Under the pieces are notes generated by a model. The model saw only the letters and a list, made by a program, of their open reading frames with translations. It ran no database searches and had not been told where the DNA came from. This document shows positions 11,482-47,734 of a DNA stretch of 64,000 nucleotides, piece after piece; position 1 is the first letter of the stretch; every line of letters starts with the position of its first letter. This stretch comes from an uncultured Verrucomicrobiota bacterium (GTDB lineage: Bacteria > Verrucomicrobiota > Verrucomicrobiia > Palsa-1439 > CAYGDP01). The stretch covers positions 110,033 to 174,032 of the forward strand of contig CAYGDP010000002.1 of assembly GCA_964348665.1 (NCBI GenBank), in the 5' to 3' direction. A program made the position numbers and the translations under genes.

Positions 11482-11535
11482 GGTATTTTTGTTCGCATGG
11501 TTTAGACCACTCAAACCGCCAAATTGCTCGTTGGT

Positions 11536-28800: not shown

Positions 28801-31800
28801 ACAACGGGCTTTGGACAGCCCAGGCCAACAACCAGATTTCTAACGACTACGGCAACGCTCAGTCCACTTTCTCCAACTTCGGCAGCTTCCAACACACCGG
28901 CACGTCCAGCAGCCACATCTTTATTGTCTATGACAACGATGGCAGCACGCAAGTCACCAGCGGCACTTTGCATTTGCGAGGCGGGGGCAACAGCAGCGGC
29001 AGCTTCAACGCCACCAGTCCTGGCGCGCTCTTCTTTGGCGAAGGTACTCATACTTTGAGTGCCACTTCCTCGGTCACCGGCAGTGGCACGCTTGGCATCT
29101 TCACCGGCAGCACGGTGGTCAACGGCTCCTGGACAGTCAGCGGCACCACCGATCTGCAGGGCGGCACCATCAGCTTCAATACGGCGGCTACAACGGTCAA
29201 CGCCTTGCTCCGTGGCAGTGATGTTGCGGGCAGCGGCAGCCTCACGGTAAGCGGGACGATGAGTTGGACCGCGGGCCGGATCGTAAACGGAGCGACCTTG
29301 ATTGGGACTCACGGAGCGACCTTGAATCTGATCGGCGGGAATGAAGACATCGTTGGTTCGACCTTGAATAACGATGGAACTGTCAACTGGACCAGCGGCC
29401 GCATCCGGACCGGTTTCGGAACGCACATCAACAACGACGGCCTTTGGATCGCCCAAGCCAACAACGCCATCGTCAACGACTACGGCGGCGCGCAATCCAC
29501 TTTCTCCAACAGCGGCATCTTCCGCCAACAGGGCAGCGGCACAACCACGATTGCGATTGATTTTATCAACTTTGGCTCGGTCGAGATTCTGACCGGCACG
29601 CTTAGTTTCACCGGCGCTTATACCCAGACTGGCGGCGTCACCGCGTTGGAGGGAGGCAGTCTGAGTTCCACTCAAACTCTCACCATTCAAGGCGGCGTCT
29701 TGACCGGCATCGGAACGATCTTTGCCAACGTCGTAAACGGCGGCGAACTTGGACCGGGCGCTTCAATTGGGATGGACGTCGGCATCCTCAATCTCGCCGG
29801 CAATTATACCCAGACGACCACCGGCTCGCTGCATATTCAGCTCTTCGATGTTGGCGCGGGGATCGGGTTCGATCAATTCCGGGTCGCCGGCGCGGTGACT
29901 CTGGAAGGGGGCATCAACCTCGCCCTCGAATCCACGATACCCCTATCGGGAGAAATCATCTTCCTCGACAACGACGCGACCGACGGTGTGACGGGAACCT
30001 TCGTGGGTTTGCCCCAAAACACCTTTGTGATGCTCAACGACGACCTGTATCAACTTAGCTACAGCGGGGGCAGCGGCAACGACGTGAGCCTCCAACGCGT
30101 CGTGGGTATTACCATCACCAACGTCAGTCTTCCCGAAGGCGATTTGGGGATAACCGATTTCATCTTCACGGTCAGTCTGGACCAACCCGGCACCACGTCG
30201 CTAACTCTCGACTACGCCACCAAGGATGGCACGGCCACCTCCGCGCATGATTACGTGGCGACCACCGGCTCGCTCACCTTCGCGCCGGGCGAAGTCACCA
30301 AGCCGATCACCGTCCCGGTCAACGGCGACAACGCCAGCGCGACCGACGAGACGTTCTTTGTGGAGATCGTCAATCGCATCCTGGTGTTCTCGCCCAACAC
30401 CACCCGAATCGGCATCGGAACGATCCTCAATGACGACAACGAACTTTACGACGCCGAAGAACGATTCCTCTTTACCACGACGGAGGATTTCCACGAAGGA
30501 ACGCTCTCCTCCAACCTCACTGCGACCCAGGTGCCCGATGAAATGGGACTGATGGCGCAATTCCCCTTCTTCCCTTACGTGAACATCGCCGCATCCGCCC
30601 GGGGCACGATCATCCGTCTGGATGCCAACACGGGTGAGATTCTCGGCGAATACCTCACCGCGCCCGATGGGATGGGACGCAATCCCTCCGCGACCGCGGT
30701 GGACCTCTTGGGCAACGTCTGGGTCGCCAATCGCGATGAATCCTCGGATGGCAAAGGATCGGTGACCCGAATCGCCCTTGTCATCGGCGGCACGCGCGGC
30801 ATCAAAAATCCCGACGGCAGTTTCACGCCCGATCCCGGCGGCCAATATCTTCAAGGACCCTTCCTCTATTCCACGGCCATTGACCGCGATGGCGACGGCC
30901 TGATTAAAACCTCCTTTGGTCTGGGCAACATACTTGCCTGGAACAACGCCGGCGGGACGGATTCGCTGGGCGGCGTTTTCACGGCGGAAGACGAACTCAT
31001 CATCAATTACACCCGCGTCAGCGGCACCAGGACGGGCACCGTCGCCATTGACGGCAACAACGATCTCTGGGTGGGCGGCGTGGGCGATCACGACCACGAA
31101 AAAATCAGCGGCGTCACCGGTCAGCCGATTCCCGGCACCCAGTTTAACACCGGTCGCGCCGGCTTCGGCGGTCTGGTGGATCGCAACGGCGTGCTCTGGT
31201 CATCGAACTCGCTGATCCGCTTCGTTCCCAACGTCAATCCGCCGCCGGCGGGCACCAGCGCCAGCATCGGCAACAATTACGGAATCGCGACCGACCCGCG
31301 CACGGGTCACATCTGGATCACCAACGGCGGGATTGGATGCAGCTACGGTCTCTTCGAGTTGGATTCGGATGGCCGCGTGCTGAACCGCTACCCGCAACCA
31401 TTCCCCTCCCAAGGAGTGGCGGTGGACGCCAACAGCCACGTCTGGGTGGCGCAGATGTTTGGCTCGAAGGTTTGGCATCTTGCACCCGACCCCAACGATC
31501 CGACCCGACACATCACGGTCGGGTTTGTCACCGGCTTTCACGAGGTCAACGCGCTGGCGGTGGACCCGAATGGCAAGATTTGGGTCGCCGAACGAGGCAA
31601 TCGCGCCAGCCGCATTGATCCCAGCGCGGGCGACATCGGCGCAGGCGGTTACCCGGTGGGCGCGATTGAATTGAGCGTTGCTCTGGGTCTGGGGGCGGGT
31701 CCTGACAACTACAGCGACATGACCGGCTTTGTCTCGCACAGCTTGGTCCCGCAAGGCGTCTGGACGCACACCATTGACGGCGAACAAGACCGAACGGGCT

Positions 31801-34800
31801 GGGGAGTTGTCGTTGTGGACGCGACCATCCCCGTGGGGACAAGCATGGTGGTGCAAGTGCGCGCCGCCGACAGCTTGAGTGATCTGGCGAGCCTGCCCTA
31901 CATCACGATCCAGTCCGGCCAAATCCTCCACGACGTCGCCGGTCGGTTCTTGCAACTCAAAGTCACCGTCGTCTCCGAGGACGACGCCACTCGTCCGAGC
32001 GTGCAAGCGATCTCCATTTATAAATTGCCGCCGCCGACCATCACGGTCTCCAGCCCCGCCAACGGCGAGCGATTCGACGCGGGCAGTTCGATTCTGATTA
32101 CCGGCCTAGCCGCTTCCGGCCGTCCCTTTATCGCCGAGACGGGAACGCAGATTCCCAATCGGATCGCCACGGTCACCGCCAATGGAACGACCGTCGAGGC
32201 GCTGGACTTGATTGGGAATTTCTTCACCCGAGTCACGCTTTTGCCCGGCGAGAATGTTTATGAGTTTACCGCGTATGACGCCTTCGGCCAGAGCGTCACC
32301 GCAACGCTGACTCTCACCGGCGTGCAAGTGACGGCCGGCGACGTTGATTTCGCGCAGTTGACCGATGTTAGCCGCAGCTTCGTCAGTGAATATGGCCGCA
32401 CCTCGTTTACCGAGAGCGCCGACGTGTTGTATGCCGACCTTGACTCGATTCGCAGCATCGGCTCGTTTTACGTGGATGCGCCTTTCCTGCTCGGGGTGAC
32501 CAACTTCAGCGATTCAAGCGTGCAACTGGCCGACAGCGACGGGGTGACTCCCGATGGTATCGCGTACTACGACCTGAGCAGTCTGGTCATTGACGGCTCG
32601 ATCGCGCCCGGAGAACTGCTCGGCTCGCAAACGCTGGCCTTCTTCAATCCCAACCGCGTTCGGTTCACCTACGATCTGGTCTTCTTGGGTCGCCTCAATC
32701 GCGCGCCCGCGTTTACCACCGTTCCCGATCTTTCGGTTGCCCTGGGCCAGACCTATTCCTACCTCGCCGACGCTGCGGATCCTGATGTGAACCCGCTGAG
32801 CTTCTCGATTCTCTCCGGCCCCGCCGCGATGACCATCGAGAGCGCGACCGGCGCGGTGACGTGGACGCCGATCACAAGCGACCTCGGAACCCATTCCATT
32901 ACCCTTCAAGTCGCCGATGGCCGGGGCGGGTTTGGCCGGCAACATTACTTGCTCTCGGTCACTGCCGTTCCGCCGAATCGTCCGCCGGTCTTCACCTCGA
33001 TTCCAACGGTTGTTGGCAACGTCAACCTCACCTATAATTATTTGGCCACCGCAACCGACACGGACAACGACGCGCTGATCTTCTCCCTGCTTAGCGGGCC
33101 GCAAGGCTTGAGCGTCCATGCCAACGGTCTTGTCACTTGGACGCCCACCGCCGACCAGCTCGGAGTTCAAAATGTGGTTCTCACTGTTTCCGATGGCCAC
33201 GGCGGCGACGCCTTCCAAAGCTTCGCCATTTTCGTCAGCCAGGAACCGGGCAATCACCCGCCCGTGATCGTCACCCAACCGATCACCACGGGGTTCGCGG
33301 GAACCGCTTACACCTACGACGTGGATGCCCTTGACGCGGACAACGATTCTTTGACCTATTCCCTGACGACCTTCCCAGCGGGGATGACCATTGACGGAAT
33401 GACGGGATTGATTTCATGGAATCCAACGTTGAGCGACGTGGGAAATCACGTCGTCACCGTCCGCGTGAGCGAGAATCGCGGCGGGATCGGCGAACAGAGT
33501 TTCTTCCTCTCGGTTCAAGGGCAAGCCCCCGCCCAAATCCGCGGCGCGAAATTCAACGATCTGGACGGGAACGGCGTCCGCGCTTCCGAAGAACCCGGTC
33601 TTGCCAATTGGGCGATCTATCTAGATCAAAACGGCAATGGCCGGCGCGACTTTGGCGAGTCGGTCAGGCTTACCGATGTCAACGGAAACTATTCCTTCGA
33701 TAATCTTCTGCCCGGCGATTATCTCGTCGCCGAGGAAGCTCAGCGCGGGTTTAGCCAGACGGCTCCCCTGGGCGGAACATACGCGGTCAGCGTCGCCAAC
33801 GGCCAGATCGTCGCGGGACTGGATTTCGGCAACAAGCAGGTGGCGGTTGTGGAAGAGCAGCCGCCCTTCTTCGTGACCGAGCCGATTACTGAAGCGATTG
33901 CAAGCCAGACCTATCTCTACGAAGCCGCCGCGACCGATCCCAATTTCGATGCGCTCAGCTTCGATCTCCTGGTCAAACCCGCCGGGATGCTGGTGGATCC
34001 CGTAACCGGCGTCGTGATCTGGGAACCCACCGCCGCCCAGGTCGGTGTGCACGACGTCGTGCTGCGAGTTTCGGACGGCAACGGCGGCAGCGACGAGCAA
34101 TCCTTCCAAATCATCGTCAGCCCCGCCAATAACCCGCCTTCCATCACTTCGGTTCCATTCGGTCCCGCCTTGGTCGGCCTGCTCTACCAATATCAAGTCC
34201 GCGCGCAAGACGCCGACGGCGACGCGCTGACGTTCCAATTGGTGACTGCGCCCTCCGGAATGACCCTCTCTTTCCTCACTCCTCAATCCTCAATCCTCTC
34301 CTGGACGCCAACCTTCAGTCAGATTGGGACTCACGCCGTCGCCATCACCGTCGCCGATGGTCGTGGCGGAATGGACGCGCAGAGCTTTGATCTCGCCGTG
34401 GCCGTTGCCAATGACGCTCCTGCCATCACCTCGACGCCGACTGCCCCCGCCGTTGTCGGGTTCCCGTATCAGTATCAAGCGCGAGCTTCCGATCCCAATG
34501 GCGATCCGCTCACCTTCCGCTTGGACGTCGCCCCCTCGGGCATGGTGATTGATCATTTGAGCGGCCTTTTGACGTGGACGGCGACCGCCGATCAGGTCGG
34601 TACCAATCAAGTCAGCATCGCCGTGACCGATGGCCGGGGCGGGATCGCCACCCAGTCGTTTGGATTGCCCACCGTCACTGAAGCGGTCAACGACGCCCCT
34701 CAAATCACTTCCTCGCCTCCCGCGCCCGCCGTTGTCGGCTTCCCTTATCGGTATCAGGTGGAAGCATCCGATCCCAATGGCGATCCGCTCACTTTCAGTC

Positions 34801-37800
34801 TCGATACCGCTCCCAGTGGGATGACGATGGATAGCCAGACAGGGCTTGTCTCGTACACCGCTACCGCCGGTCAGGTCGGCAATCAACCCGTCGCCATCAC
34901 GGTCGCCGACGGTCGCGGCGGATTCTTTACGCAGTCGTTTGATTTGCCCGTGGTGACCAGCGCCCCAAATGACGCGCCAACCATTGTCTCCGAGCCGCTC
35001 GGCCCCGCCGTCGTGGATGCGCCCTATCGTTACCAAGTGGAAGCCACAGACGTAAATGGCGACCTGATTACGTTCCAACTCACCACCGCTCCCAGCGGAA
35101 TGCTGATTGACTCCGCCACGGGACTGATCTCATGGACGCCGACCGCCGCCCAGGTGGGAACCCAGAATGTCGCCGTCTCGGCTAGCGACGGTCGGGGCGG
35201 CGTCGCCACGCAGTCGTTTGGGCTGCCCGTCGTGACGCAGACGATCGCCAATGAGCCGCCTTCCATCAGTTCCACGCCGCGCATCAATGCCGCTGTTGGT
35301 TCGCTCTATCTCTATGCGGTCGTGGCCACCGATCCCAATCATGACGTCCTGACTTATTCTCTGCCAATCGCCCCCGCAGGCATGACGGTGGATGCCGATG
35401 GTTTGATCCGTTGGACGCCGACGTCCGCTCAACTCGGACCGAACTTTGCGCGGCTGGAAATCTCTGATGGCCGAGGCGCTATTGTGGGACAAGAGTTTAA
35501 CGTCAACGTCACCACCGAGTTCACCAATCAGCCGCCGATTATCGTTTCCAACCCGACGGGTTCAGCTCTTGTGGGTGATCTCTATCGTTATGACGCTGTC
35601 GCCTCCGACCCCGATCATGACCCGCTCACATGGACGCTGGTCAGCGGCCCGGCGGGAATGTCCATGGATTCGCAGCTTGGCTCGCTGCGTTGGACGCCCA
35701 ACGCGGATCAAGCAGGATTCCAACCCGCTGTCATCCAAGTCAGCGATCCCTTCGGCGGTTCTTCAACCCAAAGCTTCACGGTGGCGGTTCGCTTGGTCAA
35801 TATCGCCCCCAGCATTACTTCCACGCCGCTGACCAGCGCCGTGGTCGGCAAGACGTATGTTTATGCCGTCCGCGCCACCGACCCTGAAAACGATCCGCTG
35901 GCCTTCTTCCTGACCAGCGCTCCGGCGGGAATGACCATGGACGCGGGGACGGGATTGATCCTGTGGACGCCGACCAGCGCGCAGGCGGGCAGCGCGAGCG
36001 TCTCGGTGGCGGTTTCCGACGGGCAAGCCTTCTCTTCCCAAAATTATTCCATCACCGTGCTGGCCACGGCGGAGAATGCCCCGCCGGTGGTGACCTCCAC
36101 CCCGCCGTTCTTTGCGACGGTGGATACGCTCTACACTTATATTGTCACCGCCGTTGACCCGGAATCCGAGCCGATCACGTTCACGCTGACCGAAGCTCCT
36201 GCGGGAATGACGCTCACCCCAGTCACCAATAACGAGTCACAAATCACTTGGACGCCGTCTGCGGCGGACATTGGTTTCCACACCGTCTCGATCGTGGTGA
36301 CCGACCCGCATGGCGCGCCGAGCGCGCAGCGCTTCACCATCGGTGTGGCTGATCCCAACAATCCCAATCCGCCGATTGCGGATATTTCCAACATCGCGGA
36401 GAACCAAGTGGTGCGGGATGGATTGTTTGATCTGGTTGGCATCGCCAATGATCTCGACCCGACCGACGCGGTCTCTTACCAGTTGAGCCTTTTCCTGCCC
36501 GATGGCACGTTTGTCCGAGACATGACGCCCGCTCCGCTCAACGCGCAAGGCTTCCATGTGGGTCGGGTTTCCGGCGGTGACAATCTTGCCACGCTGGACT
36601 TCACGATGTTGGAGAACGGCGTTTACCAACTCGATCTGACGGTGAGAGGCGGCAACGATTTCGACTCGGACACCGTCACCTTCGCGTTGGACAGCAATCT
36701 CAAGGTCGGCCAGTTCGGTTTCTCACAGCAAGATTTGGTGATTCCTGTCAGCGGCATCCCGCTCTCGGTGATTCGCACGTACAACTCGCTCAATCCGAGA
36801 GACGGAGATTTCGGGTTCTCGTGGACATACTCGATCAGCGACGTGGAGTTTACCACCGATGAGTTCCGCGTCCCTGCCGAGGACATTGATGGCACAAACT
36901 TTAGCCTGCGCGACGGTGGCGGGCGCAACATCACTCTCACGCTCCCCGATGGGCGGCGGACAACGTTCGCGTTCTCGCTGACGCCCGGTCTTTCGGACGC
37001 TTCGGGTGTGTCTTGTTTCTGTTACCAAGCTTTCTGGACGGCCCCGCCCGGCGTCTATTACACCCTCCAACCGACCGTCTCCAATAAGCTCATCCAACTC
37101 CCCGGCCTAACGCCGTTCTGGGAAGCGGCGGGCTTGGGCACGCCGATGGATGCGTTTGATTTCAAGAGCTTCATCCTGACGGGCAAAGACGGCGCGCGGG
37201 TTGATCGTTCCGGCCACCGCACCGACGGCTTCCCGCTGGGCCACACCGCCACCGGCGGCACGCGCTACGTCATCGAGCGGGAAGATTTGGGTGAACACTT
37301 TGTCCTCACCGAGGAAGGCGCGAGCCTCTTCGTCCACACTTATGGCGAGGGGAAACTCACACAAGTCATTGATCGAAATGGGAACACGACGGTTATTAGC
37401 AACGATCAAATCGCTTCCTTTAATGCCTTGGGTGACCCAATACGTTTGATTACATTCGACCGGAATCCTGAAGGTCGCATCGTAGCCATTACTGACCCAC
37501 TGGGCGCACAAATGACTTATGAATATGACTCTTTGGGCAACCTCACCTCCGCAACCGACCGAGTTGGCAATACCACCCAATATGTCTATGGAAATCCCAG
37601 TTTATCGCACTACATTACAGAGATAATAGATCCACTTGGCCGAACAACCGCTCGGACGGAATATGATGATAACGGACGCATCATCGCTACGATTGACGCG
37701 AAGGGCAATCGTGTGGAGTTCAACTACGACTTGTCGGGACACACGCAGACAATTTTCAACGGGCTTGGTATCCCGGCAATTTACACCTATGACACGCGTG

Positions 37801-40800
37801 GGAATGTAACGGAGAGAACACAGTTCCTCGATGGCATGGCGGTTGTCAATCATTGGATTTACGACGGCAACAATAACTTACTCACCCACGTTGACCCTCT
37901 GGGCAATACGCGCAACTACACATACGATTCACAAGGGAACGTGCTATCGGTGACTGATCCTCATGGCGCAGACCAGAATCCTGAGGAGTTCACAATACGT
38001 TACACCTATGACGAGTTCGGTAATAGCACCAGCGTCATGCTGCCGACTGGAGCAGCGGAATTTTCGACGTATGACTCCAATGGGAATCTGCTGGCAATCA
38101 CCAATGAGGACGCCGTGGTGTTGAGTTCATGGACGTTCGACGCGGTGGGAAACACGACCTCCGAGACCGATGCGTTCGGGACATTCTCCTACCAATATGA
38201 TTCGGTCGGCAACAATATCAGCTTCACTGATTCCATAGGCAATACGATCACCAGCACCTACGATGCGAACGGCCAGATCACGACGATGACGGATAACGGG
38301 GTGACCTCGACATTCCAATACGACGAAAATGGTCGGGAGACATCCTCGGATTACGGCAATGGTATCACGGCCAACTATGGTTACAGTTTCCAAGACGAAT
38401 GGACGACGCTGGATGCACCGACAATCGGACATCTTGGGCGCGAGTTTGACGAAACAGGGCGGTTAGGCGGCTGGGAGTTGACGAACGGCAGCACGATAGA
38501 TTTCGATTACAACGCGGCGGGGCAATTGACCCAACAGGTTGATCCAATGGGGAACGTGACGCAATATGAATATGATGATCTAGGTCGTGTGGTTAGCGTC
38601 GTAGACGTGGCGACGGGTGCCGTGACGACGAAGGAATATGATCTCGCAAACCGCGTGATTCGGACTACGGATGCAGAAGGAAACTCGCAAACTTTCAGCT
38701 ACGGACCGGATGGCCGGCTCGCAGCGACGAGTGATGCGAATGGAAATGTCTTATTATACAGCTACACATTATTCACCACGTCTGTGACCGATCCGTTGGG
38801 ACGGACGACGACAACGGAGTTCTCGGAGCTTGGTGTGCCGATCCGCACGATCAATCCCGATGGGACGGAATCGAGCGCGAGCTACTTGGATGGGGTGATT
38901 GATGACCCCGATGAGTTCCCCACGTCACTGGTGGATGAAGGCGGTCATGTGCGGTCGTACACGTATGACGACGTTGGCCGACTTTCGACGGCAACGGATT
39001 TAGGCGGGAGCGTTTACAATTATAATTACGGGTTAGATGGTCTTTCTTCTATCCTTGGTCCCACCAGCGAGACGCTTGGCTTCACGTACGATATTATTGG
39101 AAATCGCAGCACGATGACCTTTGGGGATGGGGGCGTGCAGAGCTATTCCTACGGGGCGAACAATTTACCTTCTGTGGTAACGCTGCCGTCGGGCGAAACG
39201 ATTAGCCTCCTCTACGATGACGCAGGTCGCACGACCTCGCGTATGACTTCCGAGGGAGAATCTGCAACATACTCCTACAACGCCAATGACCAAGTTACCG
39301 TGCAGCAGGATAACACGGGCATTACCAGTTACACGTATGACGAAATCGGAAATTTGCAGCGCATTGATTATCCGACCACTGCGAGCGTCGAATACGGATA
39401 TGATTTGCTGGGACGCGTGATCTCTGTGACGGCCAAGGAATCTCCGACTGCGTTAGGTTACACAACGCTTTATCACTATAACGAAATCGGGAATCTCGAC
39501 CAAGTGACCGACCCGTTGGGTGGGGTGACGACGTATGAATATGATGAGGTTTATCGGCTAGGCAAACGAACATTGCCCAACGGAATCGAGACGACCTACG
39601 AATACAATGACAGCGATCAAGTGACAGTCATCATCCACAAGGATAGCGGCAGCAATGTGATTGCATCGCTGCGCTACGAGCGTCAGGGAATCGGTGAGCC
39701 AAGCAAGATCACGCGCGAAGACGACTCGTATGTGTTGCTCGGTTACGATAACGCGCTACGCATGACCAGCGAAGCCTATTTTGATCCCAACAACGTGCTT
39801 ATCGAGCAAATCACTTATCAATATGACGACGCGGGAAATCGGGTCGGCAGAACGACGGCGTTGGGAGCGAGCACATACAACTACCAGACGGGCTTCCGTC
39901 TCACAGCGGTGGACGGGCCAGGCAGCGATGATGAATCCTACAGCTATGATTCGGATGGAAACACAACCGCGATCAGCCGCGACGGATTGAATCTGATGCT
40001 AACTTATGACAGCTACGGACACGTGACAGGTGTGCAAGGGCTGGCGGGCGGCGCGACAGAAACGTATACCTATGACGCTATGGGTCGGCGCGTGGGAATA
40101 GCAAACGGAGCGGGTGACATTAGGAACTTCCTCGTCGCGCCGACATTGGCAGATGGACTTGAACAACCGTATCTGGTGACCGACGTCAGCGGCGCGGTTC
40201 AGATGGGCTACGCGTACGTAGGCGAGACGCCGTTGCTGCGCTTCGATGCCAGCGGCCAGCCAGTTTATTACCTTGACGACGCGATGGGATCAGTGATCGG
40301 ATTGGCGAACGCCAGCGGTCAAGGTGTTGCAAGCTTCCAATACGACGGCTTCGGAAATCCGCGAGTGGTAACCGGCGACTCTGCTGCACCCGCGACCATC
40401 GGTGGCGACTTCCGTTTTCACGGACAATGGCTTGACATCTCCACTCAGCTATATTCCATGCGTGCTCGCACTTACGACCCACAGACCGGTCGATTCCTCA
40501 GTCGCGACCCCATCGAAATGGACCAGTTCACACCCGAGATGATGAATTTCTACATCTTCGCAAACTCAAATACGCACCTCTTTCGCGATCCGAGTGGGTT
40601 GTTTTCACTAATCGAATTAAATTTGACGACACTAATCCAAGGTTTTCTACAAGGTATACGCGCGCTAGCTGTACATGAAGCTAAGCAGTATGTTAAGCAA
40701 CAGGCGTTTGGAGCGGCTGGTAGTTTTTTTGTTAACTCGATCGCTTCGTTCGTGCCAGGGCTCCATGAATTTGGAAGTAACCTGTCTTCGATAACTGGCA

Positions 40801-41399
40801 CGGACTTTGAAGGGATAATCAAGAATACGATCTGTGGTTTAGCCGAGCCGATTTCTTCTATTATTCCAATCGGGGTTAGATTCCAAGTGAAGGTCCTTGC
40901 ACAAAATACGCCTTCTCCCGAGGGGATTCTTCGTGCAGGAACACCGGTTTCACCAGGAATAGGTTGTAGCGGTTCCTCTGAAGCTTATAGGAATGCTTCA
41001 AATCCATTTCTTAGGCTCTCGTTTACGGGAGGGAAAAAGCAAAGGTTCAACTCCGCCGATTTTGTATTTCGGAATGGCGATGTCGTTAGATACTCTACGA
41101 GAAACCATCCCGTACCCCAGAGGCCTAAAGGCTGGGCAATAGGTGATTCAAAACGAACCGCGGTGACTGCCTATCTGTCAGCGAAAACGAATTCAACGCA
41201 GTGGCGCGCTATCACGGCCTACGCTAGTTTATATGGTAGCCAACAATACATACCTTTCGCTTTTTACGTGACTTTGTTACGAAACAGCCAGAATGCAACC
41301 TTTGGAAGGCCACAGGCAATTATAATGCAGAGTAGTGCTCTGCGTAGTGGGACGGTAGTTTCAGTTTTTAGCTTATTCCCCGTGCCAAGTATTTATTGA
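22866..41399 (+). CDS. giant 6177-aa multidomain adhesin-like RHS/YD-repeat polymorphic toxin
   Basis: Single uninterrupted ORF of 18,534 nt. Domain order: P/S/T-rich N-terminus; PKD-like domains; beta-propeller-like region; 6 x 212-aa tandem repeats; Calx-beta ('DYATKDGTATSAHDYVATTGSLTFAPGE'); second propeller-like region; 12 cadherin-like/putative-Ig repeats; one SdrD-B-like domain; YD repeats ('YEYDSLGNLTSATDRVGNTTQYVY...'); RHS core 'YSMRARTYDPQTGRFLSRDP...RDPSGL'; about 265-aa C-terminal module. Confidence 0.9.
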   Translation: METGQNNRDQAVAIALKAFEENALREAVAVSTPPAEAGITLRSMFRGTTTFRALARKIATLLPRVAPRRESKLLRKLRHFQRQKACLSPAENHLQHPSSTTSVPPRANPSERRGMPSRFTAPIPLTSRLKHLVLGKWGTKDKSPRRKREHRFRRDLRYDQSFVAESAEPRLMAGSLAGPNILTVIDGVEGNEDWTMGLPEIVALGNSQAVPQTSEAPHAASSSTNHTEPIASNVTLPANAETTAQAIQSLQETGEFNPEEDIGLPFLSSDSTSSAWNPLNPDVTEALLFQLAELQQLFASRNALDTVAPKTLIAPLALEPTSAQTDSQIDPSLLAGDSQTSNSEPTTTGSGSTPQTISPVTNPQSSPTGDSPGNRDPPPDPPPPGLIRMACSGWTLVESGGSESGRGSFTSESGSLALREGDSFLVSIQRAFTIPPNPATLTFTLDELTFDTTDPDFINDAFEAAFLDASGISLVPVIASSRDSFFNATEGEPVALGSKTTFSDPTVTLNISSLPAGSTGILALRLVNNDSDVNTLARIHCNTPPQVTANDGAANEGQSLEFVGTFIDPDIGDTHTALISWGDNTTSEGVVTATQDGGTVTASHVYADNGNYTITLTVSDNNEGVGSDSATATIANVAPAVTVGPNQTHKDKELALDFTIGTFSDPGFTSPTAGTEETFTALIDWGDGTTPSEGTLTVVQGSEGVLTTGTVTANHVYQGGGVYTVTLTVTDDDLDSGSASFQITILPTKFFVVDQDRRSTFRYDRDGGFVSESDLGQFDSRPRGVASDSTGDTLWVIDANKTVYVYTGEGALLGSWQDPGLNQPQDITTDGTDIWIIDTPDNVVYRYSGAASRRSGSQAPDASFPLVVEDRNPTGLVTDGSTFWVTDNFDHLNKVFVYDMTGQLLGSWLLDPLNVDPSGITLNPNGGSDLWVVDRLRNAVFHYAESQDVRSGSLLVTDTFALANNNRHPEGIADPEVFWNVDSDGFWDDAANWDTGTVPSPTDDVIIDRPTANPTVTIRFGAQSVNSVTSHEALVLSGGTLSVAAPSEVNNTFTLSGGDLTGAGPFTINNTMDWIAGRLVSGGTLVIANTATLNLINSNDKDVVGSTLNNFGTANWNTGRIRTGSGSLIANSGLWIAQANNQISNDYGNAQSTFSNSGSFQHIGSSSSHIFIVYDNNGSTDATNGTLHLRAGGTSSGSFNAASPGALFFGEGTHILNASSSVSGSGTVGIFSGSTIVNGTWSVSGITDLQGGTIAFNTAASTATGIFRGSDLAGSDSLTVTDTMDWSSGRIVSGGTLIIANTATLNLINSNDKDVVGSTLNNFGAVNWFVGRIRTGSGSLISNSGLWIAQANNQISNDYGNAQSTFSNSGSFQHSGSGDSHIFIVYDNNGSTDVTSGTLHLRGGGNSSGSFNAPTPGRLLFGEGTHTLSASSSISGSGTLGIFSGSAVVNGSWTVSGITDLQGGTISFNTAASTVTGIFRGSDLAGSGSLTVSNAMDWSSGRVVSGGTLIIANTATLNLINSNDKDVVGSTLNNFGTVNWNAGRIRTGSDSLIANSGLWIAQANNQISNDYGNAQSTFSNSGSFQHSGSGDSHIFIVFDNNGSTDVTSGTLHLRGGGNSSGSFNAPTPGRLLFGEGTHTFSASSSVSGSGTLGIFSGSAIVNGSWMVSGITDLQGGTIAFNTAASTITGIFRGSDLTGTGSLTVSNTMDWSSGRIVSGGTLTIANTATLSLINNNDKDIVGSTLANFGTVNWLAGRIRTGSGALISNSGLWIAQANNQISNDYGNAQSTFSNSGGFQHSGSGDSHIFIVYDNNGSTDVPSGTLHLRGGGNSSGSFSTTSPSALFFGEGTHTLTATSSVSGSGTVGIFSGSAIVNGSWVVSGTTDLQGGTIAFNTAASTVTGIFRGSDLTGSDSLTVTDTMDWQRGRVVSGGTLVIANTATLNLINSNDKDIVGSTLSNFGTVNWNAGRIRTGSGALIANNGLWTAQANNQISNDYGNAQSTFSNFGSFQHTGTSSSHIFIVYDNDGSTQVTSGTLHLRGGGNSSGSFNATSPGALFFGEGTHTLSATSSVTGSGTLGIFTGSTVVNGSWTVSGTTDLQGGTISFNTAATTVNALLRGSDVAGSGSLTVSGTMSWTAGRIVNGATLIGTHGATLNLIGGNEDIVGSTLNNDGTVNWTSGRIRTGFGTHINNDGLWIAQANNAIVNDYGGAQSTFSNSGIFRQQGSGTTTIAIDFINFGSVEILTGTLSFTGAYTQTGGVTALEGGSLSSTQTLTIQGGVLTGIGTIFANVVNGGELGPGASIGMDVGILNLAGNYTQTTTGSLHIQLFDVGAGIGFDQFRVAGAVTLEGGINLALESTIPLSGEIIFLDNDATDGVTGTFVGLPQNTFVMLNDDLYQLSYSGGSGNDVSLQRVVGITITNVSLPEGDLGITDFIFTVSLDQPGTTSLTLDYATKDGTATSAHDYVATTGSLTFAPGEVTKPITVPVNGDNASATDETFFVEIVNRILVFSPNTTRIGIGTILNDDNELYDAEERFLFTTTEDFHEGTLSSNLTATQVPDEMGLMAQFPFFPYVNIAASARGTIIRLDANTGEILGEYLTAPDGMGRNPSATAVDLLGNVWVANRDESSDGKGSVTRIALVIGGTRGIKNPDGSFTPDPGGQYLQGPFLYSTAIDRDGDGLIKTSFGLGNILAWNNAGGTDSLGGVFTAEDELIINYTRVSGTRTGTVAIDGNNDLWVGGVGDHDHEKISGVTGQPIPGTQFNTGRAGFGGLVDRNGVLWSSNSLIRFVPNVNPPPAGTSASIGNNYGIATDPRTGHIWITNGGIGCSYGLFELDSDGRVLNRYPQPFPSQGVAVDANSHVWVAQMFGSKVWHLAPDPNDPTRHITVGFVTGFHEVNALAVDPNGKIWVAERGNRASRIDPSAGDIGAGGYPVGAIELSVALGLGAGPDNYSDMTGFVSHSLVPQGVWTHTIDGEQDRTGWGVVVVDATIPVGTSMVVQVRAADSLSDLASLPYITIQSGQILHDVAGRFLQLKVTVVSEDDATRPSVQAISIYKLPPPTITVSSPANGERFDAGSSILITGLAASGRPFIAETGTQIPNRIATVTANGTTVEALDLIGNFFTRVTLLPGENVYEFTAYDAFGQSVTATLTLTGVQVTAGDVDFAQLTDVSRSFVSEYGRTSFTESADVLYADLDSIRSIGSFYVDAPFLLGVTNFSDSSVQLADSDGVTPDGIAYYDLSSLVIDGSIAPGELLGSQTLAFFNPNRVRFTYDLVFLGRLNRAPAFTTVPDLSVALGQTYSYLADAADPDVNPLSFSILSGPAAMTIESATGAVTWTPITSDLGTHSITLQVADGRGGFGRQHYLLSVTAVPPNRPPVFTSIPTVVGNVNLTYNYLATATDTDNDALIFSLLSGPQGLSVHANGLVTWTPTADQLGVQNVVLTVSDGHGGDAFQSFAIFVSQEPGNHPPVIVTQPITTGFAGTAYTYDVDALDADNDSLTYSLTTFPAGMTIDGMTGLISWNPTLSDVGNHVVTVRVSENRGGIGEQSFFLSVQGQAPAQIRGAKFNDLDGNGVRASEEPGLANWAIYLDQNGNGRRDFGESVRLTDVNGNYSFDNLLPGDYLVAEEAQRGFSQTAPLGGTYAVSVANGQIVAGLDFGNKQVAVVEEQPPFFVTEPITEAIASQTYLYEAAATDPNFDALSFDLLVKPAGMLVDPVTGVVIWEPTAAQVGVHDVVLRVSDGNGGSDEQSFQIIVSPANNPPSITSVPFGPALVGLLYQYQVRAQDADGDALTFQLVTAPSGMTLSFLTPQSSILSWTPTFSQIGTHAVAITVADGRGGMDAQSFDLAVAVANDAPAITSTPTAPAVVGFPYQYQARASDPNGDPLTFRLDVAPSGMVIDHLSGLLTWTATADQVGTNQVSIAVTDGRGGIATQSFGLPTVTEAVNDAPQITSSPPAPAVVGFPYRYQVEASDPNGDPLTFSLDTAPSGMTMDSQTGLVSYTATAGQVGNQPVAITVADGRGGFFTQSFDLPVVTSAPNDAPTIVSEPLGPAVVDAPYRYQVEATDVNGDLITFQLTTAPSGMLIDSATGLISWTPTAAQVGTQNVAVSASDGRGGVATQSFGLPVVTQTIANEPPSISSTPRINAAVGSLYLYAVVATDPNHDVLTYSLPIAPAGMTVDADGLIRWTPTSAQLGPNFARLEISDGRGAIVGQEFNVNVTTEFTNQPPIIVSNPTGSALVGDLYRYDAVASDPDHDPLTWTLVSGPAGMSMDSQLGSLRWTPNADQAGFQPAVIQVSDPFGGSSTQSFTVAVRLVNIAPSITSTPLTSAVVGKTYVYAVRATDPENDPLAFFLTSAPAGMTMDAGTGLILWTPTSAQAGSASVSVAVSDGQAFSSQNYSITVLATAENAPPVVTSTPPFFATVDTLYTYIVTAVDPESEPITFTLTEAPAGMTLTPVTNNESQITWTPSAADIGFHTVSIVVTDPHGAPSAQRFTIGVADPNNPNPPIADISNIAENQVVRDGLFDLVGIANDLDPTDAVSYQLSLFLPDGTFVRDMTPAPLNAQGFHVGRVSGGDNLATLDFTMLENGVYQLDLTVRGGNDFDSDTVTFALDSNLKVGQFGFSQQDLVIPVSGIPLSVIRTYNSLNPRDGDFGFSWTYSISDVEFTTDEFRVPAEDIDGTNFSLRDGGGRNITLTLPDGRRTTFAFSLTPGLSDASGVSCFCYQAFWTAPPGVYYTLQPTVSNKLIQLPGLTPFWEAAGLGTPMDAFDFKSFILTGKDGARVDRSGHRTDGFPLGHTATGGTRYVIEREDLGEHFVLTEEGASLFVHTYGEGKLTQVIDRNGNTTVISNDQIASFNALGDPIRLITFDRNPEGRIVAITDPLGAQMTYEYDSLGNLTSATDRVGNTTQYVYGNPSLSHYITEIIDPLGRTTARTEYDDNGRIIATIDAKGNRVEFNYDLSGHTQTIFNGLGIPAIYTYDTRGNVTERTQFLDGMAVVNHWIYDGNNNLLTHVDPLGNTRNYTYDSQGNVLSVTDPHGADQNPEEFTIRYTYDEFGNSTSVMLPTGAAEFSTYDSNGNLLAITNEDAVVLSSWTFDAVGNTTSETDAFGTFSYQYDSVGNNISFTDSIGNTITSTYDANGQITTMTDNGVTSTFQYDENGRETSSDYGNGITANYGYSFQDEWTTLDAPTIGHLGREFDETGRLGGWELTNGSTIDFDYNAAGQLTQQVDPMGNVTQYEYDDLGRVVSVVDVATGAVTTKEYDLANRVIRTTDAEGNSQTFSYGPDGRLAATSDANGNVLLYSYTLFTTSVTDPLGRTTTTEFSELGVPIRTINPDGTESSASYLDGVIDDPDEFPTSLVDEGGHVRSYTYDDVGRLSTATDLGGSVYNYNYGLDGLSSILGPTSETLGFTYDIIGNRSTMTFGDGGVQSYSYGANNLPSVVTLPSGETISLLYDDAGRTTSRMTSEGESATYSYNANDQVTVQQDNTGITSYTYDEIGNLQRIDYPTTASVEYGYDLLGRVISVTAKESPTALGYTTLYHYNEIGNLDQVTDPLGGVTTYEYDEVYRLGKRTLPNGIETTYEYNDSDQVTVIIHKDSGSNVIASLRYERQGIGEPSKITREDDSYVLLGYDNALRMTSEAYFDPNNVLIEQITYQYDDAGNRVGRTTALGASTYNYQTGFRLTAVDGPGSDDESYSYDSDGNTTAISRDGLNLMLTYDSYGHVTGVQGLAGGATETYTYDAMGRRVGIANGAGDIRNFLVAPTLADGLEQPYLVTDVSGAVQMGYAYVGETPLLRFDASGQPVYYLDDAMGSVIGLANASGQGVASFQYDGFGNPRVVTGDSAAPATIGGDFRFHGQWLDISTQLYSMRARTYDPQTGRFLSRDPIEMDQFTPEMMNFYIFANSNTHLFRDPSGLFSLIELNLTTLIQGFLQGIRALAVHEAKQYVKQQAFGAAGSFFVNSIASFVPGLHEFGSNLSSITGTDFEGIIKNTICGLAEPISSIIPIGVRFQVKVLAQNTPSPEGILRAGTPVSPGIGCSGSSEAYRNASNPFLRLSFTGGKKQRFNSADFVFRNGDVVRYSTRNHPVPQRPKGWAIGDSKRTAVTAYLSAKTNSTQWRAITAYASLYGSQQYIPFAFYVTLLRNSQNATFGRPQAIIMQSSALRSGTVVSVFSLFPVPSIY
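26079..29894 (+). repeat. six near-identical 636-nt (212-aa) tandem coding repeats inside the giant gene
   Basis: The motif 'atggactggagcag[c/t]ggtcg[g/a]atcgtcagcgg' recurs at 26715, 27351, 27987 and 28623, always 636 nt apart. Diverged copies sit at 26079 and 29259. Confidence 0.85.
32700..36355 (+). repeat. 12 cadherin-like/putative-Ig domain repeats (about 92 aa each), interrupted by one SdrD-B-like domain at about 33530-33840
   Basis: Recurrent '..PP.ITS.P...A.VG..Y.Y...A.DPD.D.L.F.L...P.GM.ID..TGL.SWTPT..Q.G...V...V.DGRGG...Q.F' units starting near 32700, 32985, 33255, 33860, 34130, 34420, 34690, 34965, 35250, 35530, 35800 and 36075. Confidence 0.7.
36596..36679 (+). repeat. 84-nt segment duplicated at 43110-43193 (one mismatch)
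   Basis: 'gacttcacgatg[t/c]tggagaacggcgtttaccaactcgatctgacggtgagaggcggcaacgatttcgactcggacaccgtcac' occurs in both places. Flanks are about 80% identical (36360-36440 vs 42906-42990). Confidence 0.85.
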
Positions 41400-41601
41400 A
41401 AGGCGGCTTATGTCGGTAACACTATGGACATCGGTAGCACTCGATTTTTGGACATACGAGCCGGGCCATGGTCACAATGACAAATTTACCGAATTAAAAT
41501 CCGGTTCGTTGGATGCCCTCATAAGGTAAGGACAAAGAGCATGCAGCACATAAATGCAGAGTATCTTTGTAAAGATTAACCGTACTAAGGATAAAATAAG
41601 A

Positions 41602-42138
41602 ATGAATACGAATGATCCTTTCGGGAAAGTCATTTGGCAGGCTCAACAAGCGATAGACGACAGTGATTTCAATAAACTGAAAGACCTAATTGTTGAAAAC
41701 CTCTGGCTGAAAAATCCTTTGGAAGACACGGGGGGATCGCTCTTACACTACGCGGTAACGAACCGAAACCCTGGGGCTGTAGAATTCCTAATTTCCGAAG
41801 GTCTAGACGTAAACATGAAAGACCTAGAAAGTGTTAACACACCGCTCTTAATAGCGGTTGAAGAAGAAGACGCAGAAATAACAGAGTTACTCCTCCAGCT
41901 CGGCGCGGATGTAAACTGCCGAAATCCAAACGGGTGTACTCCTCTACACCTCGCAGCGAAGAGTGGGAATACTGAAATCGCAAAAATCCTGATTTTTTAC
42001 GAAGCGGATGTAAATGCTCGAGATATTTTCGACGGGTGGTCTCCCCTTGACTACGCGTTGGCAGAAGAACGATCAGGCGTTGCGGACATGCTTCGTAGGA
42101 GCGGGGCAAGACAGTTTGGCAAAGGGACCGACAAATGA
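41602..42138 (+). CDS. ankyrin-repeat protein, candidate immunity protein 1
   Basis: ATG at 41602 with RBS 'aagga'. Ankyrin repeats ('GGSLLHYAVTNRNPGAVEFLISEGLDVNMKD...', 'GCTPLHLAAKSGNTEIAKILIFYEADVN'). Immediately downstream of the RHS C-terminal module. Low GC. Confidence 0.7.
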   Translation: MNTNDPFGKVIWQAQQAIDDSDFNKLKDLIVENLWLKNPLEDTGGSLLHYAVTNRNPGAVEFLISEGLDVNMKDLESVNTPLLIAVEEEDAEITELLLQLGADVNCRNPNGCTPLHLAAKSGNTEIAKILIFYEADVNARDIFDGWSPLDYALAEERSGVADMLRRSGARQFGKGTDK

Positions 42139-42776
42139 GATTCCTGAAAAATTTTTTTGGATCGGTAAAAAAAACAGAGTCGCCGGCGGGTGGCACTGTT
42201 TTGGGGACGTTACTTCAAGCGAAGGAGGCGATTGACACGGAAAACGTTGTGACACTTGAGTCATTGTTGCGTAAACATCCCTCACTCGGCGAGGAACTTG
42301 ATGACTTGGGCTGGTCGCTATTGCATTATGCAGTGGCTCATTACAAGCTTCAGTCGATAGCGCGAATGCTCTCATGCGGATTGAACGTTAATATTTCCAC
42401 AAAGAATGGAAATTGTACGCCTTTGTTTTTTGCGTGTGCTGGGAATGGTCCAATAGAAATGGCACAACTGCTGATTGAACACGGAGCAGACGTTAATTGG
42501 AGAGACGAAGAAGGTGGAACAGCGCTTCATGCGGCAGCAAACCATAACCGAACAGACCTAATTACTCTTCTGATAGCAAAGGGATCTGAGGTAAATGTAA
42601 AAAGGAAGGCCGATGGATGGACTCCACTACATTGTGCAGATAATCTTGAGACGGTAAAGTTGCTCATAGAAAAAGGGGCAAATTCAGCAGCACGGGACAG
42701 GTGTCGACGCACGCGGATGGATATTGCAAGGGGAGCAAAGCAAAACGACATAGCCGAATTTTTGCAGAGATTGTAA
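42135..42776 (+). CDS. ankyrin-repeat protein, candidate immunity protein 2
   Basis: Start overlaps the previous stop (ATGA). Ankyrin repeats ('GWSLLHYAVAHYKLQSIARML', 'GNCTPLFFACAGNGPIEMAQLLIEHGADVN', 'GGTALHAAANHNRTDLITLLIAKGSEVN'). Confidence 0.7.
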   Translation: MRFLKNFFGSVKKTESPAGGTVLGTLLQAKEAIDTENVVTLESLLRKHPSLGEELDDLGWSLLHYAVAHYKLQSIARMLSCGLNVNISTKNGNCTPLFFACAGNGPIEMAQLLIEHGADVNWRDEEGGTALHAAANHNRTDLITLLIAKGSEVNVKRKADGWTPLHCADNLETVKLLIEKGANSAARDRCRRTRMDIARGAKQNDIAEFLQRL

Positions 42777-42830
42777 TTGTTGTTGTGGCTCAGGAGATTG
42801 TGGTGCGGTGGCAGTTTTTGAGATAACGCG

Positions 42831-43202
42831 ATGCAAACGAGATTGAATACGACGCCGTTGTTGTTGTGGCTTCTCTTGCAAAAGCAAGAGCAGCGGGAAG
42901 TTGCGCCGATTGCGGATATTTCCAATATCGCGGAAAACCAAATCGTCCGTGATGGACTCTTCGATCTCATCGGTGTCGCTGACGACGCTGACCCAGCGGA
43001 CATAGTTTCCTGGGAAGTCACTGTTCAATCGGTGGCACAGGCGTCCCTGCCTGTGGTTCTATTGACAGGTTCAAATCGGGTTTCAGGGGGAGATTCCTTT
43101 GGCATCCTCGACTTCACGATGCTGGAGAACGGCGTTTACCAACTCGATCTGACGGTGAGAGGCGGCAACGATTTCGACTCGGACACCGTCACTTTCTGTT
43201 AA
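42831..43202 (+). pseudogene. orphan fragment homologous to an internal segment of the giant toxin gene (pre-YD-repeat region), with its own N-terminal hydrophobic leader
   Basis: 123 aa, 'MQTRLNTTPLLLWLLLQKQEQREVAPIADISNIAENQIVRDGLFDL...FTMLENGVYQLDLTVRGGNDFDSDTVTFC'. Matches giant-gene aa about 4500-4610. Stops 3 codons after nucleotide identity ends. Confidence 0.6.
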
Positions 43203-43403
43203 AGGCCGAATTGACGTCGTACGCGATGACCGAATTCTGATCATACGATTTTTCCGAGTTGACCGCGCTCTCATCATATTTTGCGCCCGATTTCGTCATA
43301 GCGGCATCGCGAGTTATGACCGTGCTGGTCTTTCGCCCACTCACGCGATTTCGGCTGCGCTCTCATCATAGCGATAGGACGGTAGCGGCTCTTTTCTGTT
43401 ATC

Positions 43404-46699: not shown

Positions 46700-47734
46700 T
46701 CAACCTCCTCGGGCGAGGCTCTTTAAAAAATCCTTCCGCACACTATCCAACCCTTGCAGAGTTTCGACGCGAACCAACCGGATGTTCAATCGCTGTGCCG
46801 TCGGTCCGAGCAGTACGCCCGTTTCCGGCTGCTTAAACTGGATCTCTTGCGGAACGATTTTGTGTTCCTCGATTAGGTCCAACAATTTGGGGACAAACTT
46901 CTGAGGTGTGGTTCCCGACGATTCGAACTCAATCGCAAGTATGAAATCCGATTCCTGATCCACTACCATGCATACATAAGGGAAGAATGGTCTTGCGTCC
47001 TTCCCCTCTTGAACCGGCGAGGGCGAATAGAAAAAATCCAATTCCCAAATTTGTTTCTGCGGGTAGTTGGCGCGATGGATTCGAGAAATGCGATCTTCGT
47101 CCGGTTGGATCGGCTGAGGTGAGGGAGGTTTCCAATCTGGGAGTTCCAACCATTGATCTGTCCAAACAAGCTGCCCTCCCTCTTTCTGAGGAACCCTCAC
47201 GAGACAACGACCTCGATCAGGCGTCAGAAGGAACGGCGTTTCTTTGGTTCGCCGGCCAATTTCAATGGCTTGCTCAAGAACAACCGCTAGAAATCGTGTT
47301 TCGGAAGCATCTAGGAACCAAGGGAAATATCCCGGCGAGAAACTTCGGAATTGTGGCCACGCATGCTTGCCCGGAAAATTCATCCCGAGCGTTTTGATCA
47401 GATTTCGATTGGTTGAATTCAGCGCACTCCTTTCCTCAAACTCCACCATGAGGCATTTCATTATCACCAATAAATCGGTGTCGTCGTAGCCGAGATCGCG
47501 GGCAAACACCCGACGATAAGAGTGTAGCCCTTCTGCTCCCCGATAGACACTTAAACCAAAAACTTCTCCCAATTGCCCGAGCACACCGCAGTAACCGACC
47601 TCCCCGCTGTCGGGGTCTTGTACTCCGAAGAGATCACCGTCGCTCATCCATTTCCAGCATTCGATCTGGCGGAAGCGGTCCGCCGTCTCGTATAATCTCC
47701 GCCACTCGTCTAAGGATGGTTGCTTGTCATTCAC
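46700..47734 (-). CDS. hypothetical protein (344 aa)
   Basis: Long clean ORF upstream of and co-oriented with the second integrase. No recognised motif. Confidence 0.5.
   Translation of the reverse strand: MNDKQPSLDEWRRLYETADRFRQIECWKWMSDGDLFGVQDPDSGEVGYCGVLGQLGEVFGLSVYRGAEGLHSYRRVFARDLGYDDTDLLVIMKCLMVEFEERSALNSTNRNLIKTLGMNFPGKHAWPQFRSFSPGYFPWFLDASETRFLAVVLEQAIEIGRRTKETPFLLTPDRGRCLVRVPQKEGGQLVWTDQWLELPDWKPPSPQPIQPDEDRISRIHRANYPQKQIWELDFFYSPSPVQEGKDARPFFPYVCMVVDQESDFILAIEFESSGTTPQKFVPKLLDLIEEHKIVPQEIQFKQPETGVLLGPTAQRLNIRLVRVETLQGLDSVRKDFLKSLARGG

Follow-up and report, generated by a model that had tools for sequence, protein, structure and literature searches.

Rhs and TcC toxins, such as the Rhs effectors of type VI secretion systems (T6SS) and TcB-TcC, combine RHS repeats, a core domain carrying the motif DPxG...DPxGL, a variable C-terminal domain (CT), a downstream candidate immunity gene and a break in base composition. 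In these systems, the core domain cleaves the polypeptide and the CT is encapsulated by the shell. All these traits were found again in a 64,000-nucleotide (nt) stretch (hereafter, the window) of contig CAYGDP010000002.1 from an uncultured Verrucomicrobiota bacterium, in which an 18.5-kb Rhs gene ends in a 265-residue CT and is followed by two ankyrin-repeat genes, ank1 and ank2. The best overall explanation appears to be an Rhs-delivered toxin, probably a PD-(D/E)xK nuclease of an undescribed family, accompanied by an acidic ankyrin immunity protein; from sequence comparison and modelling, we give this reading a probability of roughly 0.6. That the CT and the ankyrin genes form a toxin/immunity module is held with much greater confidence.

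Two groups of nuclease toxins are the closest described counterparts of such a domain. The first comprises the C-terminal toxins of RHS-repeat proteins with a restriction endonuclease (REase) fold, named Tox-REase-1 to -10, whose clade motifs include ‘GxxxE, IxD, ExK, Q’ for REase-7 and ‘E, D, ExK, Q’ for REase-1 and -6 (Zhang et al. 2012, PMC3482391). These clades occur in cyanobacteria and planctomycetes, and the immunity protein of REase-7 is an alpha-solenoid (HEAT) protein (PMC3482391). The second comprises the PD-(D/E)XK toxins of contact-dependent inhibition (CDI), i.e. the CdiA-CTs of Escherichia coli TA271 and Yersinia pseudotuberculosis YpIII, which are Zn-dependent DNases, and those of Burkholderia pseudomallei 1026b and E479, which are tRNases (PMC9086364); the YpIII structure (4ZQU) has an active site made of E, D and SxK (PMC9086364). 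Ankyrin-repeat proteins are, as the original prediction for this locus stated, an established class of immunity proteins: Imm-ank was paired with Tox-AHH, Tox-GH-E and deaminases by comparative genomics (PMC3482391), and ankyrin immunity was proven experimentally for the Tle/Tli pair of Enterobacter cloacae (10.1101/2023.03.28.534661).

The boundary between the Rhs core and the CT could be placed precisely. Indeed, the match to TIGR03696 (Rhs_assc_core; E = 4.5e-18; residues 181-267 of the 39801-41396 translation) ends exactly at DPSGL (residues 5908-5912, nt 40587-40601), and the core domain, read in the translation as YDPQTGRFLSRDP...RDPSGL, displays the motif DPxG...(x)n...DPxGL. DPSGL is thus presumed, by analogy, to be the autoproteolytic boundary that would free the CT inside the shell. 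The 265 residues that follow (residues 5913-6177, nt 40602-41396, beginning FSLIELNLTT...) form a separate C-terminal domain, as had been proposed, and their lower GC content was borne out as well: GC falls from 0.579 in the part of the open reading frame (ORF) before the CT to 0.456 in both the CT and ank1 and to 0.460 in ank2 (whole window, 0.54; RHS shell intermediate, at 0.54), whereas GC at third codon positions drops from 0.68 to 0.40 at the CT boundary. The fall is located within about 60 nt of DPSGL, and GC recovers near 42.9 kb. Upstream of the CT, the uninterrupted ORF encodes a 6177-residue Ig-domain/RHS-repeat protein, in which PKD, Calx-beta, He_PIG, Big_9 and cadherin-like Ig arrays precede DUF6531, at least 12 RHS repeats (Pfam RHS_repeat, E = 5.5e-98, 12 stretches), the Rhs core and the CT. 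The giant protein differs in this respect from T6SS Rhs effectors and TcB-TcC, as its N-terminal approximately 4600 residues consist of Ig-like, PKD and cadherin arrays without PAAR or VgrG linkage, and no T6SS genes were seen among the scanned ORFs of the window.

Searched as a single sequence, the CT gave no match at E<=1 in Pfam and NCBIfam, none in PADLOC, none at E<=10 among the Protein Data Bank (PDB) sequences and none in a word-indexed search of 5.8 billion proteins. Relatives were obtained from an exhaustive HMMER search, in which 1.84 billion cluster representatives were scanned with the CT. This retrieved 32 proteins (E from 2e-10 to 7e-4, 26-39% identity), of which 31 were kept as relatives and one (P0031), a low-complexity repeat protein, was discarded. 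The exhaustive search was needed, since a word-indexed search with the family alignment yielded only five proteins. Each of the 31 relatives either forms the C-terminal end of an Rhs protein or is a short toxin-core fragment, and for most of them the matched region opens right after DPxG[LMEG] at the end of the Rhs core. In their source entries, the members are named ‘RHS repeat-associated core domain-containing protein’ (Kamptonema) or ‘hypothetical protein’ (Nostoc). A further 11 loci were recovered with degenerate DNA patterns derived from PDFxxK...GDxK...QWxA[IM], which are biased by the chosen Asp codon and sample only part of the family; the genome matches were to Spirulinaceae, Cyanothece (two loci), a Rivularia plasmid, Argonema, Aphanothece, an Ardenticatenaceae metagenome-assembled genome (Chloroflexota) and one uncultured bacterium. 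The CT family is carried by unrelated Rhs proteins and by orphan modules, in cyanobacteria, Chloroflexota and others. Six loci (L001, L013, L014, L015, L018 and L019) contain two or three Rhs-CT modules in tandem, all of this one family and every one followed by a gene of its own; they represent arrays of orphan cassettes of toxin and immunity genes. As originally predicted, the module is novel: Pfam and NCBIfam scans of the window CT and its 31 relatives returned scattered chance-level matches only and no nuclease family, and the CT family is an undescribed, predicted toxin family, without curated model, inside a well-known type of Rhs system.

To characterize the genes downstream of the toxin, a profile of the core was run over all ORFs of all loci, which gave 32 family members, distributed over 22 loci. 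In 21 of these 32 members, the next ORF downstream, on the same strand, encodes an ankyrin protein, whereas ten have other neighbours and one (at L021) is a degraded fragment. This arrangement, which gives comparative support to the ankyrins as immunity candidates, was Pfam-checked in the gene calls of eight members (P0025, P0033, P0035, P0036, P0001, P0002, P0004 and P0013); the position of ank1 directly after the CT matches the ankyrin placement in 20 homologous loci. The linkage extends to very distant members (24-31% identity), and even in Nostoc (L003), where the toxin core is represented by an orphan fragment of 116 residues, the ankyrin neighbour is kept. The linked ankyrins are acidic (isoelectric point (pI) 4.1-4.9), with the exception of the L013 ankyrin (pI 9.1). 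Because of this tight 3′ linkage, of co-variation with the toxin, of retention in orphan modules and of replacement by unrelated proteins in sister subclades, sequence comparison strongly supports the ankyrin protein as the probable cognate immunity protein of the CT family.

The neighbours of the other members are varied. A WD40 beta-propeller gene stands directly after the CT at L018 (minus strand; 3069-4025 of the reverse complement, stored about 3976-4932) and at L024 (895-2034); these WD40 proteins may represent an alternative type of repeat-protein immunity. At L001 and L002, the downstream proteins (201 and 204 residues) have no Pfam matches, and small unknown proteins are found at further loci without ankyrin. 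Two loci, L020 (Ardenticatenaceae) and L023 (a metagenome contig with a GC of 0.685), encode full-length Rhs proteins of 1876 and 1793 residues ending in the CT family; here, no small gene comes next, the start of a very large protein that looks secreted is found about 60 nt further on, and an ankyrin gene is absent from the flanks. Homologous loci have one ankyrin gene each, long (237-314 residues) in six of them, and these long proteins appear, from inspection of their sequences, to consist of two ankyrin blocks. A motif Y-L-x-P-[LI]-T after the second repeat is common to the cyanobacterial-type ankyrins of 13 loci (L001, L002, L003, L005, L008, L009, L011, L012, L014, L015, L016, L019 and L022); ank1 and ank2 do not have it.

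In the window, both ankyrin genes are of low GC, as had been noted, and match Pfam Ank (E = 1.8e-28 for ank1 and 1.6e-27 for ank2) and Ank_2 (E = 6.8e-24 and 1.1e-27). The claim that they follow the Rhs gene immediately has to be corrected, since a spacer of 154 or 202 nt precedes ank1, depending on whether the latter starts at ATG 41554 or at ATG 41602 (the ENA gene call). Likewise, translational coupling would apply to the two ankyrin genes, which overlap by ATGA at 42135-42138, the sole overlap in the Rhs-ank1-ank2 series, and does not extend to ank1 and the Rhs gene. The spacer also holds a 39-codon ORF, MSVTLWTSVALDFWTYEPGHGHNDKFTELKSGSLDALIR (41410-41529, plus strand), called by one gene caller (L007) and with no known relatives; a scan of 40400-43400 for promoters and terminators gave promoter-like sites at chance level only.

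The two ankyrin proteins are each other's best match in BLASTP (36% identity over 155 residues), with an alignment that reaches through the non-repeat N-terminal cap, and their sequences therefore point to a tandem duplication in the host lineage, in line with the duplicated immunity gene originally envisaged; similarity to the ankyrins of other loci is generic only (E from 1e-8 to 1e-12). They differ in charge, ank1 being acidic (pI 4.4, net charge -14) and ank2 near neutral (pI 7.7). Since ank1 adjoins the CT and is acidic like the immunity proteins of the family, we lean slightly towards ank1, rather than ank2, as the cognate partner. As for ank2, it might be a second, diverged immunity protein, an orphan immunity protein or a relic. 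Compared with described ankyrin immunity, the likeness is that the toxin gene is directly followed by one for a small ankyrin-repeat protein. However, Tli is a periplasmic lipoprotein acting against a phospholipase, whereas no signal peptide is visible in the translations of ank1 or ank2 and their partner is a putative REase-like toxin; moreover, the window has two tandem paralogues, where homologous loci have a single gene, sometimes with two ankyrin modules.

Ankyrin proteins next to an Rhs toxin could also serve another role than immunity, as accessory factors of the Rhs protein (chaperone, stabilizer or activator) or as effectors co-delivered against eukaryotic cells. Indeed, for some Rhs toxins a chaperone-associated partnership with ankyrin proteins has been proposed (10.1101/2025.05.08.652813), the immunity protein Tli also activates its toxin (10.1101/2023.03.28.534661), and ankyrin repeats are common in effectors against eukaryotes, with NCBIfam returning partial matches to Legionella Ank effectors. 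Yet the ankyrin gene is always positioned directly 3′ of the CT and accompanies orphan CT fragments that have no Rhs shell or secretion part, as in Nostoc; its variation parallels that of the CT, and other subclades have unrelated small proteins or WD40 proteins in its place; ank1 and ank2 show no visible signal peptide; and an acidic ankyrin facing a basic toxin fits an inhibitor. We thus regard such an accessory or effector role as improbable, and retain immunity as the probable function of the ankyrin genes.

The original prediction saw no recognizable catalytic motif in the CT. This holds for the single sequence, but in the alignment with the 31 relatives (alignment A1, from which the residue counts below are taken, with the numbering of the window CT) a D...(D/E)xK pattern is obvious. 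The family signature reads GxxxE ... PDF ... GDxK ... Q. In G66-x-x-x-E70, the glutamate is present in 23 of 29 sequences and replaced by D in three more; in P152-D153-F154, position 153 is D in 30/32 and E in the other two; in G181-D182-x-K184, G181 is invariant (32/32), D182 is found in 31/32 (E in one) and K184 in 31/32. Q200 and A208 are both conserved in 32/32. Of all these positions, P152 alone is altered in the window CT, where it is Ala. The sole member without K184, P0017, looks inactivated from its sequence, because E70 and both of the cysteines described next have been lost as well. Two cysteines, C78 (40833-40835) and C122 (40965-40967), are conserved in 27/29 and 29/31 sequences, respectively, and are lost together in P0017 and P0024, never singly. 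As both are missing jointly in the only two sequences without them, the alignment suggests that they form a putative disulfide pair. A Cys-His or Cys-nucleophile enzyme was rejected, as the family alignment contains neither a conserved His nor a single conserved Cys nucleophile, and the paired loss of the cysteines fits a structural disulfide.

Structure prediction and a Foldseek search had both been recommended for this domain. AlphaFold2, run with the 32-sequence alignment, gave a predicted local distance difference test score (pLDDT) of 75 and a predicted template-modelling score (pTM) of 0.73 for the full CT, and of 80.6 and 0.79 for the core (residues 62-265). In this core model, the elements follow each other in the order a1-b1-(hairpin)-b2-b3-a2-b4-a3-b5, i.e. 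a-b-b-b-a-b-a-b, and this order, with E in a1, D in b2, (D/E)xK in b3 and Q in a2, corresponds to the canonical PD-(D/E)xK layout, as far as the model goes. The core is also strongly basic (pI 10.3; family median 9.3), which fits a nucleic-acid substrate. Residues 1-60 were modelled as helices at low confidence (pLDDT about 43-65); the extension that they form has a family consensus, F[TS]IxE[IL]N...K[DQ]Y..DKA.G..G...LLP, and may act as a linker, a plug or an entry segment.

Foldseek searches with the CT models, made twice against PDB and once against BFVD, returned no match at E<1e-3. The top PDB match, ribosomal protein uS11 (E = 7.6e-3), was judged uninformative. Known PD-(D/E)xK nucleases recur in the weak lists, which include the CdiA-CT of YpIII (4zqu), Mus81 (4p0q and 2ziw), XPF (2bhn), NucC (7zgw) and SgrAI (7s8d), as well as a T7 endonuclease I-like protein and an ERCC4-domain protein; the best nuclease matches have E-values of 0.05-0.25 and template-modelling (TM) scores of 0.2-0.37, and are non-significant. 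The CdiA-CT structure 4ZQU ranked fourth in one list (probability 0.54) and 25th in another (TM 0.25-0.38, E>0.1). As these nuclease matches are weak and non-significant, the fold call is probable rather than proven. PD-(D/E)xK domains are known to evade sequence searches and fast structure searches alike. From the model, the C-terminal approximately 200 residues of the CT probably adopt a PD-(D/E)xK nuclease fold with nuclease activity. The substrate may be either DNA or tRNA, since the related CDI toxins of the same fold are either DNases or tRNases (PMC9086364).

Several observations weigh against an ankyrin-neutralized nuclease. Besides the lack of any significant structural match and the non-significance of the nuclease matches, no member of the family matches any Pfam Tox-REase or other nuclease model, and the family profile found nothing relevant among PDB sequences. 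A conserved, co-varying cysteine pair, suggestive of a disulfide, is unexpected for an enzyme of the reducing cytoplasm. The window CT departs from the consensus at conserved non-catalytic sites (P152A, W93R, E95Q and a Ser at the x of DxK). Lastly, the ten members of 32 without ankyrin neighbour indicate that ankyrin is not obligatory for the family.

Two other views of the CT have to be weighed. The CT could be a genuine Rhs toxin with ankyrin immunity that is not a PD-(D/E)xK enzyme, with a new fold or another activity in which the conserved D, D, K and Q serve a different chemistry or binding. In favour of such a toxin, a fairly confident model finds no significant counterpart in PDB or BFVD, with a non-enzyme (uS11) as top PDB match, the family has no profile match to any nuclease family, and it displays unusual traits, namely the cysteine pair, a conserved G-x-P-x3-G-x2-C loop and the 60-residue helical extension. 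However, the canonical REase placement of the conserved residues, the recurrence of known PD-(D/E)xK nucleases in the weak lists, the strongly basic core and the general elusiveness of this fold all speak for a nuclease, so that another chemistry is considered rather unlikely. A bolder variant, which we regard as a long shot, would make the CT family structurally new, braced by a disulfide and endowed with a new activity, with repeat-protein partners (mostly ankyrin, some WD40) and with ank paralogues split between neutralizing and loading or activating roles, as Tli does for Tle.

The preferred reading, a PD-(D/E)xK nuclease, can be set against the described toxins. With Tox-REase-1 to -10, the CT shares its position at the C-terminus of an RHS-repeat protein and the same pattern of E (after Gly, in helix 1), D, (D/E)xK and Q. 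It differs by a larger core, with a beta-hairpin/Cys loop between b1 and b2, and by the conserved 60-residue helical N-terminal extension; no CT-family member scores at E<=1 in Pfam, and the family is hence not filed in the Pfam Tox-REase families. Pfam models exist for Tox-REase-2, -3, -5, -7 and -9; we know of none for Tox-REase-1, -4, -6, -8 and -10, with which the CT family was compared by motif strings only. In addition, ankyrin immunity is listed for no REase clade in the 2012 survey (PMC3482391). With CdiA-CT toxins, the CT shares the status of a small C-terminal toxin of a large surface protein, a site made of E, D and (S,D)xK, and a small protein encoded directly downstream, which for the CdiA-CTs is the cognate neutralizer (PMC9086364). 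Delivery differs (CdiB/CdiA, a type V secretion system, versus the Rhs shell here), as does immunity, which for CdiA relies on unrelated alpha/beta CdiI proteins; structural similarity is weak (the TM scores and E-values given above) and sequence similarity is nil.

A last alternative is that the cassette is an inactive relic, the CT having become non-functional once transferred, with ank2 alone or the two ankyrin genes together as decaying duplicates. Decay of this kind could account for the off-consensus positions of the window CT (P152A, W93R, E95Q and also K157R) and for the loss in ank2 of the acidity that typifies immunity proteins of the family, and a degraded family member is known at L021. 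But the window CT retains all five candidate catalytic residues as well as the two cysteines, nothing interrupts the 18.5-kb ORF, the ankyrin ORFs both have their full length and score strongly for repeats, and identical copies of the locus exist on independent assemblies, which makes a relic very improbable.

For a functional nuclease cassette, the following sequence of events can be proposed. The RHS repeats would form a shell, the core domain would cut after DPSGL and the 265-residue CT would stay encapsulated until delivery, as inferred from Rhs/TcC proteins. A metal-dependent nuclease site would be made up of E70 (helix 1), D153 (strand 2) and D182-x-K184 (strand 3), with Q200 on the next helix, and the CT would kill by cutting nucleic acids in the cytoplasm of the target. 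The producer would be shielded by a cytoplasmic acidic ankyrin protein binding the basic toxin domain, with ank1 as the probable partner, whereas ank2, as a diverged tandem paralogue, might give extra protection against related toxin variants or be a relic. The CT, ank1 and ank2 would together constitute a low-GC cassette gained by recombination at the Rhs core boundary. The features on which this proposal draws are collected in table 1.

Table 1. Coordinates of the features discussed (nt positions in the window, or CT residues where indicated).
Feature	Position	Strand	Detail	Basis
Giant Rhs protein, predicted surface/secreted	22866..41399	+		ORF list; Pfam; NCBIfam TIGR03696, TIGR01643
Rhs-associated core domain	40341..40601	+	YDPQTGRF...RDPSGL	TIGR03696 match; translation read directly
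CT residues 1-61, helical N-terminal extension	40602..40784	+	conserved across family	HMMER alignments start at CT residue 1; alignment A1
CT residues 62-265, predicted PD-(D/E)xK-like catalytic core	40785..41396	+		column conservation; AlphaFold2 core model; core pI; codons checked
Candidate active-site codons	E70 40809-40811; D153 41058-41060; D182 41145-41147; K184 41151-41153; Q200 41199-41201	+		column conservation; codons checked
a1	residues 66-85		E70	AlphaFold2 core model
b1	residues 91-98		small hairpin after	AlphaFold2 core model
b2	residues 150-157		D153 in N-terminal half	AlphaFold2 core model
b3	residues 177-186		D182, K184 in C-terminal half	AlphaFold2 core model
a2	residues 187-208		Q200	AlphaFold2 core model
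b4	residues 219-226			AlphaFold2 core model
a3	residues 232-248			AlphaFold2 core model
b5	residues 252-259			AlphaFold2 core model
Spacer, Rhs stop to ank1	41400..41601	+	154 nt if ank1 from 41554	sequence; gene calls
ank1, ankyrin-repeat protein	41602..42138	+	178 residues (194 from ATG 41554)	Pfam Ank/Ank_2; pI
ank2, ankyrin-repeat protein	42135..42776	+	213 residues	Pfam; BLASTP; overlap read from sequence
Partial copy of Ig-like segment 36370-36683	42904..43196	+	76-88% identity	blastn; repeat search families D2, D3; translations

The CT family, which is uncurated and has at least 32 members (many in cyanobacteria, others in Chloroflexota and metagenomes), comes with an active-site hypothesis, E70/D153/D182/K184/Q200. 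If the nuclease call is true, ankyrin-repeat immunity would extend to REase-fold toxins, and an eleventh or divergent REase toxin clade would be added. The alternative partners (ankyrin, WD40 and small unknown proteins) and the tandem ank1/ank2 pair illustrate how immunity specificity can diversify. The understanding of Rhs toxin systems is unchanged by this family, which will not surprise a specialist; a family model would nonetheless be useful for annotation and would improve that of Rhs loci, as members are now labelled only as Rhs core or hypothetical proteins.

The edges of the cassette are marked by a direct repeat. The Ig-like segment immediately before the DUF6531/RHS module is partially repeated downstream of ank2, and the two copies (about 300 nt) bracket a 6.5-kb DUF6531-RHS-CT-ank1-ank2 block. 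A 123-residue ORF (42831-43202) corresponds to the truncated downstream Ig-like copy, which marks the 3′ edge of the low-GC cassette; a link of this ORF to the 123-residue ORF that follows the L013 ankyrin gene was rejected, as the two show no similarity. The repeat may have been left by recombination, or may serve as a handle by which the entire toxin module is exchanged, and the arrangement suggests two layers of exchange, one of the RHS-toxin-immunity block between the Ig-like repeats and one of the CT-immunity cassette at the core boundary.

Further out, phage-integrase-family genes (20523-21743, plus strand; 47808-48950, minus strand) flank the Rhs region, and everything between 20 and 49 kb may belong to an integrated island. 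A NusG-family paralogue (21963-22505, plus strand; PF02357, E = 1.5e-14) precedes the 18.5-kb Rhs gene by about 360 nt and could be a dedicated antitermination factor for this very long transcript. The second integrase gene is adjoined by a gene (46700-47734, minus strand) whose product matches DUF7309 (E = 3.6e-57) and DUF6930 (E = 5.2e-30), and a PSCyt1/PSCyt2/PSD1 gene, which taken by itself would point to Planctomycetota, is located at 8281-11514 (minus strand). The window is identical to ENA ERZ27247820 contig k141_690336 (246 kb), one of the identical copies on independent assemblies.

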